A stretch of DNA of 25,319 bases from the IMG/VR virus record IMGVR_UViG_2648501787_000014; one strand, given 5' to 3'. This document shows positions 2,638 through 7,360 of the stretch, in pieces (positions within the stretch are counted from its first letter, which is position 1; every line of letters starts with the position of its first letter). The position numbers and the translations under genes are program-made. Below the pieces are notes generated by a model, which was not told where the DNA came from, searched no databases, and was given only the letters and a program-made list of their open reading frames with translations. Source of the stretch: a virus. Its lineage: Duplodnaviria; Heunggongvirae; Uroviricota; Caudoviricetes.

Positions 2638-2961
2638 ATGAAGATGCCAGAAAAACATGACCTGTTAGCCGCCATTCTCGCGGCAAAGGAACAAGGCATC
2701 GGGGCAATCCTTGCGTTTGCAATGGCGTACCTTCGCGGCAGATATAATGGCGGTGCGTTTACAAAAACAGTAATCGACGCAACGATGTGCGCCATTATCG
2801 CCTGGTTCATTCGTGACCTTCTCGACTTCGCCGGACTAAGTAGCAATCTCGCTTATATAACGAGCGTGTTCATCGGCTACATCGGTACTGACTCGATTGG
2901 TTCGCTTATCAAACGCTTCGCTGCTAAAAAAGCCGGAGTAGAAGATGGTGGAAATCAATAA
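2638..2961 (+). CDS. S: Holin/antiholin S (class I holin, S107/S105 dual start)
   Basis: 107-aa [23 protein letters not shown]... closely matching lambda S as I remember it; three hydrophobic segments; Met1-Lys2-Met3 dual start. Confidence 0.95.
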
Positions 2962-3421
2962 TCAACGTAAGGCGTTCCTTGATATGCTGGCGTGGTCAGA
3001 GGGAACTGATAACGGACGGCAGAAAACCAGAAATCATGGTTATGACGTCATTGTAGGCGGAGAGCTATTCACTGATTACTCCGATCACCCTCGCAAACTT
3101 GTCACGCTAAATCCGAAACTCAAATCAACAGCCGCCGGACGTTACCAGCTTCTTTCCCGTTGGTGGGATGCCTATCGTAAGCAGCTTGGCTTGAAAGATT
3201 TCTCTCCGAAAAGCCAGGACGCTGTGGCACTGCAGCAGATTAAAGAGCGTGGCGCTTTACCGATGATTGATCGCGGTGATATCCGTCAGGCTATCGACCG
3301 TTGCAGCAATATCTGGGCTTCATTGCCGGGCGCTGGTTATGGTCAGTTCGAGCATAAGGCTGACAGCCTGATTGCAAAATTCAAAGAAGCGGGTGGAACG
3401 GTCAGAGAGATTGAGGTATGA
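2945..3421 (+). CDS. R: Endolysin R (lytic transglycosylase)
   Basis: 158-aa ORF closely matching lambda R; overlaps the S stop; standard lysis-cassette position. Confidence 0.95.
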
Positions 3422-3855
3422 GCAGAATAACCGCGATTATCTCCGCTCTGGTTATCTGCATCATCGTCTGCCTGTCATGGGCTGTTAATCATTACCGTGA
3501 TAACGCCATCGCCTACAAAGAGCAGCGCGATAAGGCCACATCCACAATCGCTGACATGCAGAAGCGTCAACGTGACGTAGCAGAACTCGATGCCAGATAT
3601 ACAAAGGAGCTTGCTGATGCTAACGCGACTATCGAAAGTCTCCGTGCTGATGTTTCTGCTGGGCGTAAGCGCCTGCAAGTCGCCGCCACCTGTGCAAAGT
3701 CAACGACCGGAGCCAGCAGCATGGGCGATGGAGAAAGCCCAAGACTTACAGCAGATGCTGAACTCAATTATTACCGTCTCAGAAGTGGAATCGACAGGAT
3801 AACCGCGCAGGTTAACTACCTGCAGGAGTACATCAGGACGCAATGCCTTCGATGA
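3418..3855 (+). CDS. Rz: Rz i-spanin (inner-membrane spanin subunit)
   Basis: N-terminal TM segment ([16 protein letters not shown]) then coiled-coil; N-terminus close to lambda Rz; overlaps the R stop. Confidence 0.9.
3617..3802 (+). CDS. Rz1: Rz1 o-spanin lipoprotein, embedded in the +1 frame of Rz
   Basis: Embedded ORF with signal peptide and lipobox ([20 protein letters not shown]) and a Pro-rich mature region; start taken at the internal Met (track ORF begins at 3590). Confidence 0.8.
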
Positions 3856-4029
3856 TAGCGATAATTTTACTCATCATCCTTCACATCTGGCTCTGTAGGC
3901 AGGGTGGTGAACACTTCTGGAGTGAATCCGGATTAAATATCTCATTGCTGATGCTTGATATTGAGCATCTGGCGCGCGGTAAGGGGCTGCGTTGAGATAA
4001 GGGCCAGTCATTACAAATACCAGGATTTA

Positions 4030-4053
4030 GCCTCGCATTTGCGGGGCTTTTTT
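4030..4053 (+). terminator. Intrinsic terminator downstream of the lysis cassette
   Basis: Stem gcctcgc (4030-4036) / gcggggc (4041-4047), loop attt, then TTTTTT (4048-4053). Confidence 0.6.
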
Positions 4054-4199
4054 ACATCTGCAGTAAACCGCGCATCGCAGCGCGTAACAATCCCGAGTCT
4101 TTCAGAAAGCTGAGCCTGAGAACTGCCGTATATGGTGGCGACCATCTCGGGGCGGCTTTTCTGTGCGAACAGGCTCATCTTTCTAAAAGGTAAGACGCT

Positions 4200-4721
4200 A
4201 TGAATATCGTTCCACTAAATTACAAAGGCGAACCTATCCGCTTCAATACTGATGGCTGGATTAATGCCACTGATATTGCAAAACGTTTCGGGAAGCGTCT
4301 GGATCACTGGTTGTCCAACGCTGAAACTCTCGAATACGTTAGAGCTCTGGATGAGGTTTATTCAGGTGAGCCATCGAAAATTCTACATACCCGTGATTCC
4401 GGGTATGTAAAAACAAGCAAGGCACGAAAGGACAGGGGCGGCGGAACATGGCTGCATCCAAAGTTATCAGTTGCCTTTGCAAGATGGTGCGATCCGAAAT
4501 TCTCCGTATGGTGCGACCTGCACATTGATAGTCTGCTTCGCGGTGAACTGACTGAGCAGCAGAAATATGAGCAAGCATGTCGCATTCGCGATGACCGGAA
4601 ATCAAAAGCCAGCAATGGGGCAAGAGAGATGGCTCGCTGGCGATGGGATAAGCCGGTTATTGAAGCAAATGTCGAGTACTGGCGCGAGCAACTGCAGTTG
4701 ACTCTCGATATCGCGTGCTGA
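4200..4721 (+). CDS. KilA-N domain DNA-binding protein
   Basis: N-terminal region with KilA-N-like motifs (NATDIAKRFGK ... GTWLHPKLSVAFARW); RBS aaaagg upstream. Confidence 0.6.
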   Translation: MNIVPLNYKGEPIRFNTDGWINATDIAKRFGKRLDHWLSNAETLEYVRALDEVYSGEPSKILHTRDSGYVKTSKARKDRGGGTWLHPKLSVAFARWCDPKFSVWCDLHIDSLLRGELTEQQKYEQACRIRDDRKSKASNGAREMARWRWDKPVIEANVEYWREQLQLTLDIAC

Positions 4722-5078
4722 TGGCAAACGCAAAACTGCGTTATCGGAAAAATCAAAGCATTACGAGAACTGAGCAACGGCTATCCATTACAAAGCCCAT
4801 CTACGGGTGGGCTTGATAATGAAACCGGAATTTATTCTTGGCAACCAGTTACGGCAGTACCACGAAACAACCCAAGCCAGTAAGTGGGGAAATAACACTG
4901 GCAGCCACTGAAAGATGAACCTCCAGCCTTATGGCAAAAAAGATTCTTTGTGGTGGCGGACTGATGGAAAGACATCGGTTATTGCAGAGACCATTCAATG
5001 AGTGGTCTCGACAATGGCTTATACCCTACACGGGATAACTTAACTGATATCCCTTTTAACGGATAAACGGAGCCAACA

Positions 5079-5321
5079 ATGGCAGAGATTATTCCCATGA
5101 CTGAAGAACAGAAATTCCAGTTAGAGATTTACAAACTGGTCATGAACCAGAACGCAGCCGCAGAGGAAGCATTTCAATTCATCGGCACTGACGAGCTGAA
5201 GCTTGAACTATTCAAAATTCACTTCCAGTCAGGCGGCGCTAATTCAGATATCACGATCCGCACATTCGAAGCGGTGCGTAAATCGAAGGAAGCGTTAGAC
5301 CTGTTCACTACCGGAGCATGA
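5079..5321 (+). CDS. Hypothetical protein (80 aa)
   Basis: GGAG RBS 6 nt upstream of the ATG; stop overlaps the next small ORF; no family recognised. Confidence 0.5.
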   Translation: MAEIIPMTEEQKFQLEIYKLVMNQNAAAEEAFQFIGTDELKLELFKIHFQSGGANSDITIRTFEAVRKSKEALDLFTTGA

Positions 5322-5322
5322 T

Positions 5323-5502
5323 GTGAGCCGCGTAATCAATTTGGGTAAGGAGAAGAAATTCCCAATTACTCAAGAGCTATACGAGCGGCTGGAAATCGTT
5401 ATCCATGATTACGATGGTGAAATCAGTTTATGCGAGGCGATTGGCACACTCGAATTGCTGAAGCAGTCACTGATTGAAGGCGCGAAAGAGTCCTCAACCT
5501 GA
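5323..5502 (+). CDS. Hypothetical small protein (59 aa, GTG start), translationally coupled to the upstream ORF
   Basis: GTG at 5323 preceded by GGAG (5312-5315); translates to VSRVINLGKEKKFPITQELYERLEIVIHDYDGEISLCEAIGTLELLKQSLIEGAKESST; not in the ORF track. Confidence 0.35.
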   Translation: MSRVINLGKEKKFPITQELYERLEIVIHDYDGEISLCEAIGTLELLKQSLIEGAKESST

Positions 5503-5525
5503 AATAAAAATTAAGTGAGATGAAT

Positions 5526-5948
5526 ATGGCGACTGAACCAAAAGCTGGTCGCCCCTCTGATTATATGCCGGAGGTGGCTGACGATATCTGCTCGTTGCTT
5601 TCTTCTGGCGAGAGTTTGCTGAAAGTATGTAAGCGTCCTGGTATGCCGGATAAGTCCACTGTTTTCCGCTGGTTGGCAAAGCATGAGGATTTTCGCGACA
5701 AGTACGCGAAGGCAACTGAGGCACGAGCTGATTCTATTTTCGAAGAGATATTCGAAATTGCTGACAATGCGATTCCAGATGCTGCTGAAGTGGCAAAGGC
5801 AAGACTTCGCGTTGATACACGCAAATGGGCGTTGGCCCGAATGAATCCCCGTAAGTATGGCGACAAGGTAACTAACGAGCTTGTCGGTAAGGACGGCGGC
5901 GCAATCCAGATTGAAACATCACCGATGAGCACTCTATTCGGAAAATGA
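5526..5948 (+). CDS. Terminase small subunit
   Basis: HTH-like N-terminus (GRPSDYMPEVADDICSLLSSGESLLKVCK ... STVFRWL) typical of phage small terminases; directly upstream of and overlapping the large terminase. Start taken at the second ATG (5526) on RBS spacing; track ORF starts at 5520. Confidence 0.8.
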   Translation: MATEPKAGRPSDYMPEVADDICSLLSSGESLLKVCKRPGMPDKSTVFRWLAKHEDFRDKYAKATEARADSIFEEIFEIADNAIPDAAEVAKARLRVDTRKWALARMNPRKYGDKVTNELVGKDGGAIQIETSPMSTLFGK

Positions 5949-7360
5949 CCTCGATTAATCCTATCTTTGAACCGTTCATTGAGGCGCATCGCTACAAAGT
6001 CGCCAAAGGCGGTCGAGGTAGCGGTAAATCATGGGCAATTGCGAGGCTGCTTGTTGAGGCGGCACGTCGGCAGCCTGTGCGTATTCTTTGCGCTCGTGAA
6101 CTGCAAAACAGTATCAGCGATTCGGTAATCCGGTTGCTTGAAGATACCATCGAGCGTGAAGGGTATTCGGCTGAGTTTGAAATTCAGCGTTCCATGATTC
6201 GTCATCTCGGAACGAATGCTGAGTTCATGTTCTACGGCATCAAAAACAACCCGACGAAGATTAAATCGCTAGAAGGTATTGATATCTGCTGGGTGGAGGA
6301 AGCGGAAGCGGTAACGAAGGAATCATGGGATATCCTGATACCAACCATCCGCAAGCCGTTTTCCGAAATATGGGTGAGCTTTAACCCTAAGAACATCCTC
6401 GACGATACCTATCAGCGATTCGTTGTAAATCCTCCCGATGATATTTGCCTGCTGACGGTGAACTACACCGACAACCCGCACTTTCCTGAAGTCCTCCGTC
6501 TGGAGATGGAAGAGTGTAAACGCAGAAATCCGACACTGTATCGTCACATCTGGCTTGGTGAGCCAGTGAGCGCAAGTGATATGGCAATCATCAAACGTGA
6601 ATGGCTTGAAGCTGCAACCGATGCGCACAAGAAACTCGGATGGAAAGCGAAAGGCGCTGTTGTTTCTGCACATGACCCGTCAGATACAGGGCCAGATGCT
6701 AAAGGTTACGCATCGCGCCACGGTTCGGTAGTTAAGCGCATTGCCGAAGGTCTGCTGATGGACATCAACGATGGTGCTGACTGGGCTACTTCGCTGGCGA
6801 TTGAAGACGGCGCTGACCACTACCTGTGGGATGGTGATGGTGTTGGTGCCGGGCTACGCAGACAGACAACGGAAGCGTTCTCCGGTAAGAAAATCACCGC
6901 CACGATGTTCAAGGGTAGCGAATCGCCATTCGATGAAGATGCGCCTTACCAGGCCGGAGCATGGGCTGATGAAGTCGTGCAGGGCGACAACGTTCGCACT
7001 ATTGGCGATGTATTCCGCAATAAGCGAGCGCAATTCTATTACGCGCTGGCTGACAGGCTGTATCTGACATATCGGGCGGTTGTTCACGGTGAGTATGCAG
7101 ACCCCGACGACATGCTGAGTTTCGACAAAGAAGCGATAGGCGAGAAGATGCTGGAGAAGCTGTTTGCAGAACTGACGCAGATCCAGCGCAAATTCAATAA
7201 CAACGGGAAGCTGGAGCTTATGACTAAGGTCGAAATGAAGCAGAAGCTCGGTATTCCATCTCCTAACCTGGCTGATGCGCTGATGATGTGTATGCATTGC
7301 CCGGAGTCGGCTGCGCAACCCGACTATTCCAGTTACTCAATTCCTTGTGGTGTAGGTTGA
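5945..7360 (+). CDS. Terminase large subunit
   Basis: 471 aa; Walker A motif KGGRGSGKS near the N-terminus; nuclease-like C-terminal half; ATGA overlap with the small subunit. Confidence 0.9.
   Translation: MTSINPIFEPFIEAHRYKVAKGGRGSGKSWAIARLLVEAARRQPVRILCARELQNSISDSVIRLLEDTIEREGYSAEFEIQRSMIRHLGTNAEFMFYGIKNNPTKIKSLEGIDICWVEEAEAVTKESWDILIPTIRKPFSEIWVSFNPKNILDDTYQRFVVNPPDDICLLTVNYTDNPHFPEVLRLEMEECKRRNPTLYRHIWLGEPVSASDMAIIKREWLEAATDAHKKLGWKAKGAVVSAHDPSDTGPDAKGYASRHGSVVKRIAEGLLMDINDGADWATSLAIEDGADHYLWDGDGVGAGLRRQTTEAFSGKKITATMFKGSESPFDEDAPYQAGAWADEVVQGDNVRTIGDVFRNKRAQFYYALADRLYLTYRAVVHGEYADPDDMLSFDKEAIGEKMLEKLFAELTQIQRKFNNNGKLELMTKVEMKQKLGIPSPNLADALMMCMHCPESAAQPDYSSYSIPCGVG

Follow-up and report, generated by a model that had tools for sequence, protein, structure and literature searches.

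The window, by which we mean the whole 25,319-nt stretch of DNA analyzed, has three ORFs in the interval between its Rz gene (3418–3855) and its gene for an Sf6-type small terminase subunit, and each of the three is located where the initial annotation had placed it (table 1). All three have the orientation of the late genes. A consensus scan of positions 3700–5700, of a kind that weak promoters could escape, found no sigma-70-like sites on the + strand, and no Rfam families were found in 3400–6000. Given this shared orientation and the absence of promoter-like hits on the + strand, we presume that all three are expressed late, from the pR′ transcript.

Table 1. Genes and non-coding features between the lysis genes and the packaging module of the window.
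Feature	Positions	Strand	Description
Intrinsic-terminator-like hairpin followed by a T-run, 3′ of the lysis cassette	4029–4048	+	terminator scan
Leader hairpin conserved at the variable Rha/KilA-N slot	4097–4191	+	inverted repeat 4099–4118/4170–4189
KilA-N ORF	4200–4721	+	173 aa; ATG start
Conserved self-complementary non-coding block upstream of DUF2560	4782–5078	not assigned	near-perfect palindrome 4981–4997/4999–5015
Empty pid-moron site	5038–5064	not assigned	blastn of the window against P22
DUF2560 ORF	5079–5321	+	80 aa; ATG start; SD GGAG 5069–5072
orf59c-type ORF	5323–5502	+	59 aa; GTG start; SD GGAG 5313–5316
Sf6-type small terminase subunit, start of the packaging module	5520–5948	+	PF20901, E = 7.8e-45

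The first ORF encodes a basic protein (pI 8.9) for which the proposed KilA-N identity is borne out: residues 7–114 match positions 4–106 of the 107 in the PF04383 model (E = 2.8e-24; 85.5 bits against a gathering cut-off of 23.8). The protein also matches phrog_129, annotated as a transcriptional regulator (E = 1.4e-58). Residues 118–170 match phrog_518, annotated as a Rha-like regulator (E = 2.3e-08), and the C-terminal region has a below-threshold match to ORF11CD3 (E = 0.01; 16.5 versus 25 bits). In having a full-length PF04383 domain, the protein is like the N-terminus of P1 KilA, HK620 HkbK, and D3 Orf11. It is nevertheless a different allele from HkbK, with 27% identity over the full length including the C-terminal region. 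In P22, the slot occupied by the KilA-N gene is held by rha, and a comparison of the KilA-N protein with P22 Rha found no similarity. Between otherwise collinear phages, this slot shows presence/absence polymorphism.

The two small ORFs have long-standing equivalents, DUF2560 in P22 orf80, HK620 hkbM, and Sf6 gp67, and the 59-aa gene in P22 orf59c, HK620 hkbN, and Sf6 gp68. In all three phages, the same two genes lie directly upstream of the small terminase gene, as they do in the window. Nucleotide identity to P22 is 95% across both genes (orf80, NP_059625; orf59c, NP_597915), and the proteins are 96% (DUF2560) and 96.5% (59 aa) identical to their P22 counterparts. In terminase type, the window agrees with HK620 and Sf6 (Sf6-type) and differs from P22 (gp3-type). 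The initial annotation recognized no family for either small protein. That does not hold for the 80-aa protein, which is DUF2560 (PF10834; E = 2.6e-42; 143.3 bits against a gathering cut-off of 25; model positions 1–72 of 72); the 59-aa protein belongs to a PHROG family, phrog_3546 (E = 3.1e-42; positions 1–59 of 59), that has no Pfam entry. Annotation of the genes in P22, HK620, and Sf6 goes back more than 20 years.

Comparisons with relatives show purifying selection on both small ORFs, which are not chance ORFs. For DUF2560, dN/dS is 0.11 across 115 distinct sequences. For the 59-aa ORF, dN/dS is 0.19, and shifting the frame raises it to 0.57 and 1.9 (IMG/VR relatives, 62 distinct nucleotide sequences). 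None of these 62 sequences has an internal stop, and 61 keep the GTG start. Both proteins are acidic and have no hydrophobic segment (DUF2560, pI 4.7 and net charge −5.4; 59-aa protein, pI 4.8 and net charge −4.4). DUF2560 has four predicted helices, but its AF2 model is of low confidence (pLDDT 59) and yielded no Foldseek matches. The model of the 59-aa protein (pLDDT 76) is a beta-hairpin and two helices, and Foldseek found no match with E < 0.6 in PDB or BFVD. Profile searches of PDB, Pfam, NCBIfam, and PADLOC produced no meaningful functional match for either protein; weak matches to CATASP (E = 0.08), JetB (E = 0.013), and Rad50 (E = 1) were treated as chance. The remote-homology and structure predictions that had been proposed as a check gave Pfam and PHROG identities but no functional family or fold.

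The junction between the small ORFs differs from its initial description, in which the stop of the 80-aa ORF overlapped the GTG start within the string ATGTGA. The stop is TGA at 5319–5321, followed by T at 5322 and GTG at 5323–5325, and the two ORFs are separated by a 1-nt spacer. The string ATGTGA does occur, at 5321–5326, although the TGA in it is not in the frame of the 80-aa ORF. The remainder of the description stands: the ORFs are tightly coupled, by a spacing of 1 nt, and each has its own ribosome-binding site, a GGAG located 6 nt 5′ of the start. That of the 59-aa gene is within the last codons of DUF2560. The junction of P22 is identical (TGA-T-GTG), and the 1-nt spacing is kept in 106 of 108 loci. 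No RNA structure masks the GTG or its SD at the junction (z = +1.4), and hairpin-enforced coupling was rejected on this basis. Ribosomes that finish DUF2560 most likely reinitiate at the weak but conserved GTG of the 59-aa gene, and the coupling would therefore reflect compaction of the operon. A 140-aa fusion of DUF2560 and the 59-aa protein is encoded in one contig.

Conserved non-coding elements lie upstream of the KilA-N and DUF2560 genes. A Q-modified late transcript would have to read through the terminator-like hairpin of the window, whose homologous site carries a rho-independent terminator annotation in phages Emek and epsilon34. A minus-strand ORF at 4011–4178 (55 aa, HTH-looking) was rejected as a gene, as it crosses this hairpin, its frame is broken by indels in relatives, and it has no family match. 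The base of the leader hairpin (fold z = −2.7) pairs with the SD of the KilA-N gene (AAAGG, 4186–4190). Among 25 distinct sequences, pairing is kept in 99.5% of cells, and one pair is compensatory; 11 of 70 paired columns are variable versus 55 of 92 unpaired columns. The same leader stands 5′ of at least six different cargo genes. The block upstream of DUF2560 is shared at 90–98% identity by 209 phage records, among them HK97, mEp234, HK620, Sf6, and P22, and is strongly folded on either strand (z = −5.2 on + and −4.8 on −). Upstream extensions of DUF2560, called as proteins of 102–129 aa, differ in frame from phage to phage, with all three frames represented; we therefore rejected the extensions and consider the block non-coding.

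The initial annotation described the interval between Rz and the terminase as a hotspot for accessory genes, and relatives agree, as their equivalent slots carry Rha, KilA-N, pid, Dec, and other cargo (PMC3573128). In P22, the pid moron is inserted in the same interval between orf25 and orf80 (Cenens et al. 2013, PMC3573128). The blastn comparison of the window with P22 places ∼630 bp containing the divergently transcribed pid between the equivalents of positions 5037 and 5065, and the window, which has no pid, retains the empty site. The pid locus has its own promoter and its own terminator (PMC3573128), whereas the genes of the window have the orientation of the late operon and no detectable promoter. 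The 59-aa gene resembles a moron (Hendrix/Juhala sense) in its presence/absence polymorphism but not in having a promoter and terminator of its own for expression from the prophage: the scan of the + strand showed no promoter-like or terminator-like site next to it or DUF2560. In phages L and ST64T, the order is orf118-orf129-dec. There, orf118 is a DUF2560 homolog (43% identity) in the same position and is likewise followed by variable cargo before the terminase; that cargo is orf129 and the gene for head decoration protein Dec, in place of the 59-aa gene of the window.

Distributions of the two small genes differ. DUF2560 is found in 170 GenBank phage records, always upstream of terminase genes, and in HK97-like phages its first 28 codons alone are kept. 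The 59-aa gene is found in 45 GenBank phage records, and in close relatives it is always directly 3′ of DUF2560 with the junction conserved. Its family is broad: 196 clusters at 50% identity are reached at E ≤ 1e-3, and all 59 diverse relatives in the alignment match phrog_3546. Distant relatives were examined in ten contexts, of which eight are among early-type gene arrays, including sites after a DnaB helicase gene, beside genes for a SNF2 helicase or a PD-(D/E)XK nuclease, at the left end of a lytic phage, in its early region, and in an ea region near the integrase. Of the other two, one, from a P22-like metagenome contig, has lysis genes on one side and the terminase on the other; the second is on a contig too short to classify. 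In these ten contexts, DUF2560 is absent among the genes that were checked or annotated adjacent. Membership of the 59-aa gene in an Sf6-type terminase module was rejected, given that the gene occurs with P22-type small terminases at 57 loci and Sf6-type at 40. Phage E212, which had prompted this idea, has homology to the window that stops at the DUF2560 stop codon.

Adjacency of two small, closely spaced, co-oriented genes is a feature of type II toxin-antitoxin modules, and the pair had been read as such a module or as a two-part anti-defense system. As a toxin-antitoxin or abortive-infection module, the pair would consist of one toxic protein and another that neutralizes it. Spacing of 1 nt, separate SDs, and a junction kept at nearly all loci are in favor of this reading, and a functional pair would likewise be expected to show the constant adjacency and conserved junction seen in close relatives. 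But the genes are not an obligate pair, because of the record counts, in which DUF2560 is alone in most phages, the distant 59-aa relatives that have no DUF2560 neighbor, and natural variants in which the 59-aa gene is deleted or replaced. In one of these variants, a clean internal deletion spares just the last 10 nt of the gene; others have a 23-aa mini-ORF in its place or, in phage L, orf129 with Dec; in a further variant, a 95-aa ORF separates it from DUF2560 and the 59-aa gene has an ATG start. P22 derivatives that lack orf80 and have orf59c are viable and lysogenize (bioRxiv 10.1101/2023.08.15.553423; PMC11016777). Neither protein matches a recognized toxin-antitoxin or defense family or fold in Pfam, NCBIfam, PADLOC, PDB sequences, or Foldseek, the consensus scan found no promoter-like site, and acidic proteins of 59–80 aa are unlike known toxins. 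The pair is extremely unlikely to be a toxin-antitoxin module; orf80- and orf59c-type genes are independent cassettes, each of which occurs naturally without the other. The two proteins are not paralogs either (hhalign probability 3.6%). The 59-aa protein on its own could be viewed as a ribbon-helix-helix regulator that binds DNA, with a strand, a helix, a G-x-x-S turn, and a second helix. By eye, KKFPIT, helix 17–29, DGEIS, and helix 36–57 are spaced as in Arc and Mnt, and the AF2 model also has N-terminal strands followed by two helices. This fold is very improbable and was rejected: it has no ribbon-helix-helix match in Pfam, PDB sequences, or Foldseek, the hhalign probability is 0.6% against an Arc/Mnt/CopG alignment, and 58 of 59 members of the family are acidic.

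The position of DUF2560 raises the alternative that, with or without the 59-aa protein, it is an accessory factor in DNA packaging or head assembly. Both podoviruses and siphoviruses have DUF2560 between their lysis and terminase genes, whether the terminase is P22-type, Sf6-type, or HNH-associated, and in phage L the slot that follows it carries dec, which encodes the head decoration protein. However, one and the same allele is found alongside unrelated small terminases, so it does not covary with the packaging machinery, HK97-like phages retain a mere fragment of the gene, and the shared flanking non-coding blocks can account for its position. P22 orf80 is also dispensable for lytic growth (bioRxiv 10.1101/2023.08.15.553423). 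A packaging or head role is therefore rather improbable. For the 59-aa protein, alone or aided by DUF2560, we consider as an unlikely alternative an inhibitor that binds a host protein in anti-defense or host takeover. Its family is small in protein size, widespread, and almost uniformly acidic, the gene is present or absent among related phages, and distant members are located among early, nin, and ea accessory genes. Such regions are the usual place of host-directed inhibitors. Against this, the protein resembles no characterized protein in searches of PDB and BFVD, and its late-operon position in P22-like phages is late for an anti-defense factor.

The KilA-N gene and the equivalents of P22 orf80 and orf59c are genuine genes, but accessory genes of an ordinary kind for P22-like phages. 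The interval is quite probably the accessory region that follows the lysis genes and precedes the terminase in a P22-like (Lederbergvirus) phage or prophage, with three independent cargo genes in its late operon. Fixed slots of a Q-dependent late operon would carry KilA-N, DUF2560, and the 59-aa gene in that order. DUF2560 and the 59-aa gene are probably co-transcribed and non-essential cargo that encodes small, acidic, soluble proteins, which are probably protein binders to judge from their size and charge, from the helices predicted in them, and from searches that showed no enzymatic or DNA-binding signature. P22 Δ(orf25-orf80)::Km lyses and lysogenizes (PMC11016777). The two proteins appear to be soluble and helical; they are non-essential in the laboratory, mutually unrelated, and independently inherited. 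Stoichiometric binding of a host or phage protein would be the likeliest action of each, rather than catalysis, DNA binding, or toxin-antitoxin activity. In the 59-aa family, a host-directed accessory role is suggested by the sites of distant relatives in early, nin, and ea regions.

As initially proposed, the locus is of little importance: its genes have long been annotated, laboratory growth does not require them, and a toxin-antitoxin module is not supported. The region does illustrate how lambdoid late operons are built, with fixed slots between conserved, structured non-coding blocks and cargo swapped exactly at the start codon. In orf59c/hkbN, a broad family that lacks a Pfam entry is present in a genetically tractable phage, P22. 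We tentatively suggest, while considering it unlikely, that phrog_3546 is a large unnamed family that moves as a single-gene cassette among early, nin, ea, and late sites of unrelated phages, that it may be an undescribed host-directed inhibitor, for example of defense, and that reinitiation after DUF2560 would determine its dose in P22-like phages. The literature library that was searched has nothing on orf59c, hkbM, or hkbN, and the source annotations of the distant relatives are all "hypothetical protein."

The window comes from a P22-like phage or prophage and corresponds to the late region, and the three ORFs that the initial annotation placed between the lysis and terminase genes are present there (table below). 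The two small genes have existing annotations in P22, HK620, and Sf6, and are non-essential. The 173-aa protein has a KilA-N domain (PF04383, E 2.8e-24) and a C-terminal region with a sub-threshold match to ORF11CD3 and with a match to the PHROG annotated as Rha-like regulators; it is 27% identical to HkbK of HK620 over its full length but unrelated to Rha of P22. The 80-aa protein matches DUF2560 (PF10834, E 2.6e-42) over its full length, and the 59-aa protein, which has no Pfam family, does the same for phrog_3546. Megablast and annotated records identify the two small genes as hkbM/hkbN of HK620, gp67/gp68 of Sf6, and orf80/orf59c of P22, with P22 and the window 95% identical across both. 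Of 5426 complete E. coli genomes, 2567 contain parts of the region, and in these PGAP labels the genes "KilA-N domain-containing protein", "DUF2560 family protein", and "hypothetical protein". The earlier description of the interval as an accessory hotspot with a KilA-N gene holds.

Coordinates of genes and sequence elements in the window
Feature	Coordinates	Remarks
Holin	2638-2961	
Endolysin	2945-3421	
Rz	3418-3855	Rz1 embedded
50-aa hydrophobic ORF	3843-3995	overlaps Rz end; Sf6 gene 65 equivalent; phrog_11822; one predicted membrane segment
Direct repeat, copy 1	3999-4022	
55-aa ORF, minus strand	4011-4178	probably no gene
Hairpin after repeat copy 1	4029-4048	GC-rich; terminator-like
KilA-N leader	4045-4199	155 nt 5' of start codon
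Leader hairpin	4097-4191	long, interrupted; base of the hairpin pairs with SD
KilA-N gene	4200-4721	173 aa
Direct repeat, copy 2	4776-4799	
Non-coding block	4782-5078	~300 bp
Hairpin after repeat copy 2	4793-4813	GC-rich; T-run on minus strand only
Palindrome in block	4981-4997/4999-5015	near-perfect
orf25-like mini-ORF	4998-5066	22 aa
Empty site of pid	5038-5064	
DUF2560 gene	5079-5321	80 aa
phrog_3546 gene	5323-5502	59 aa; GTG start
Small terminase	5520-5948	Sf6-type; downstream of the three genes
Large terminase	5945-7360	followed by portal

Both small ORFs are genes. Among 160 IMG/VR loci retrieved with both small proteins as queries, the 59-aa ORF is represented by 62 distinct nucleotide sequences, none with internal stops and 61 with a GTG start, and has a pooled dN/dS of 0.19, compared with 0.57 and 1.9 in the shifted frames; the GTG ORF is therefore conserved. 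The dN/dS of DUF2560 is 0.11 (115 distinct sequences). Each small ORF has a GGAG located 6 nt 5' of its start. The junction between them was misread as a stop/GTG overlap. The TGA of the 80-aa ORF occupies 5319-5321 and the GTG begins at 5323, leaving a one-base gap; the hexamer ATGTGA (5321-5326) contains a TGA, but not in the reading frame of the 80-aa ORF. The identical 1-nt junction is found in P22, at 41256/41258.

Apart from the junction, the observation is real, but its reading as a toxin–antitoxin system or other two-gene module is not supported. In close relatives the 59-aa gene always directly follows DUF2560, and in 106 of 108 loci the two are 1 nt apart. The converse fails, as tblastn finds 170 GenBank phage records with DUF2560 against 45 with the 59-aa gene. 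One group of loci lacks the 59-aa gene because of a clean internal deletion that kept its last 10 nt (GGAGCATGATG/CTCAACCTGA). In a second group, found with both terminase types, it is replaced by a 23-aa mini-ORF (MATQGFDNPSKFRDEWDKQAEGK, P0068) that lies behind DUF2560, 2 nt past a TAA stop. At one locus a 95-aa ORF separates the two genes and the 59-aa gene starts with ATG. Phage L and phages of the ST64T type have a divergent DUF2560 with orf129 and dec, a decoration gene, behind it. Experiments in P22 bear on the same question. A cassette used by the Casjens laboratory replaces orf25, pid, and orf80, and leaves a fragment of orf80 and an intact orf59c (bioRxiv 10.1101/2023.08.15.553423); P22 delta(orf25-orf80)::Km phage retain lysis and lysogeny (PMC11016777). 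Viable phages that lack orf80 and retain orf59c argue against a toxin–antitoxin pair in one polarity, and the occurrence of DUF2560 by itself in natural phages argues against the opposite polarity. A literature search for orf59c, hkbM, and hkbN found nothing.

The wider phrog_3546 family points to independent genes. An exhaustive profile search recovered 196 clusters (50% identity) at E<=1e-3, mostly of 53-67 aa. All 59 aligned members match phrog_3546, none matches Pfam, and every source name is "hypothetical protein". In ten contexts of distant members, DUF2560 is absent from the adjoining genes checked or annotated; flanking products of four metagenome loci were scanned with the DUF2560 profile, and the remaining contexts were judged from precomputed Pfam tables or record annotation. 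A distant member follows a DnaB-type helicase both on a metagenome contig and in Providencia phage PSTCR7lys, where the site is the nin region. Another is flanked by a PD-(D/E)XK nuclease on one side and an SNF2 helicase on the other, and in the lytic Erwinia phage AH03 the member is gene 3, at the left end. Others belong to arrays of small early-type genes, in the vicinity of ThyX and DNA ligase, of ERF, or of Ead/NinX and integrase. One contig is too short for its context to be classified, and one member lies between the lysis and terminase genes of a P22-like metagenome contig, behind an unrelated 72-aa membrane protein. The two small families are not homologous (hhalign probability of 3.6%). 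The 59-aa gene is therefore a mobile cassette consisting of one gene, and it is paired with DUF2560 only locally, in enterobacterial P22-like phages. Membership of the 59-aa gene in an Sf6-type terminase module is refuted by its occurrence with P22-type terminases at 57 loci and Sf6-type terminases at 40.

Two unusual forms of DUF2560 were observed. A 140-aa DUF2560-59aa fusion (P0092) is present on one contig alone and may reflect a sequencing error. In HK97-like siphoviruses, only the first 28 codons of DUF2560 are kept (phrog_23132) and joined to other sequence just upstream of a gp74-type HNH gene, placing a mosaic junction inside DUF2560 (HK140, locus L182, 1501-1638; also mEp234, mEp235, mEpX2, and HK106).

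The AF2 model of the 59-aa protein has an N-terminal beta-hairpin (residues 2-16) and two helices (17-29 and 36-57; pLDDT 76), and that of DUF2560 has four helices at a pLDDT of only 59. Foldseek searches of the PDB and BFVD with these models gave nothing better than E 0.6, profile searches of PDB sequences gave no match below E 1, and PADLOC and NCBIfam gave no meaningful match. A ribbon–helix–helix reading of the 59-aa protein, based on its strand/helix/G-x-x-S/helix pattern, is unsupported by the PDB-sequence profile search and hhalign. Both proteins are acidic (net charges of -5.4 and -4.4), as are 58 of 59 members of the 59-aa family, and neither has a hydrophobic segment. These features speak against binding to DNA and in favor of binding to protein.

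All three genes run in the direction of the late operon and lie downstream of a terminator-like hairpin, and no promoter-like site was found upstream of them on the plus strand. They are predicted to be expressed late from the Q-antiterminated transcript. The RNA at the small-gene junction has no stable structure masking the GGAG or GTG (z +1.4). The weak GTG is probably served mainly by ribosomes that terminate 1 nt upstream, such that coupling would set dose and would not signify a two-part system. Each small, acidic, helical protein probably binds another protein. For the 59-aa family a host target is favored because relatives sit at early, nin, and ea locations, and for DUF2560 a minor role in packaging is possible because its position upstream of the terminase genes is constant. 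It is rather unlikely that phrog_3546 is an undescribed family of host-directed inhibitors.

The KilA-N leader recurs, at 77-99% identity, in front of at least six different cargo genes (KilA-N, three with Rha-type N-termini, and two others), all of which begin with ATG AAY. Since one leader precedes different cargo genes, the mosaic boundary is exactly at the start codon. In 25 distinct sequences of the leader hairpin, 99.5% of cells are paired with one compensatory pair, and 11 of 70 paired columns vary versus 55 of 92 unpaired columns. These features hint at a possible translation-limiting or RNase III element but fall short of proof, since the stems are mostly invariant; Rfam has no family matching the leader. 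Further matches, of 80-87% identity, are in Stx2a, Klebsiella, Enterobacter, Hafnia, and Providencia phages.

The block between the KilA-N and DUF2560 genes is non-coding, 90-98% identical in 209 phage records (P22-like phages, HK97-like siphoviruses, and some Stx phages), and shows strong self-complementarity on each strand (z -5.2 and -4.8). Homology breakpoints cluster at its palindrome, which alone shows mostly wobble-preserving changes (6 of 7) among block sequences that are 95-99.6% similar. Homology to P22 reaches 5037 and restarts at 5065. Between the equivalent positions P22 has ~630 bp that contain pid, the divergently transcribed moron of its orf25-orf80 interval (PMC3573128; PMC8835761), whereas the window has an empty site. 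The TAA of the orf25-like mini-ORF is immediately 5' of the DUF2560 SD.

The HTH-looking ORF on the minus strand has been given a hypothetical-protein annotation in some phages (SPN3UB gp70). It crosses the terminator hairpin, indels break its frame in relatives, and it has no family match, so it is probably not a gene. The two copies of a direct repeat (75% identity, core CATTACAAA) flank the KilA-N cassette, each preceding a GC-rich hairpin, and may mark its insertion boundaries.
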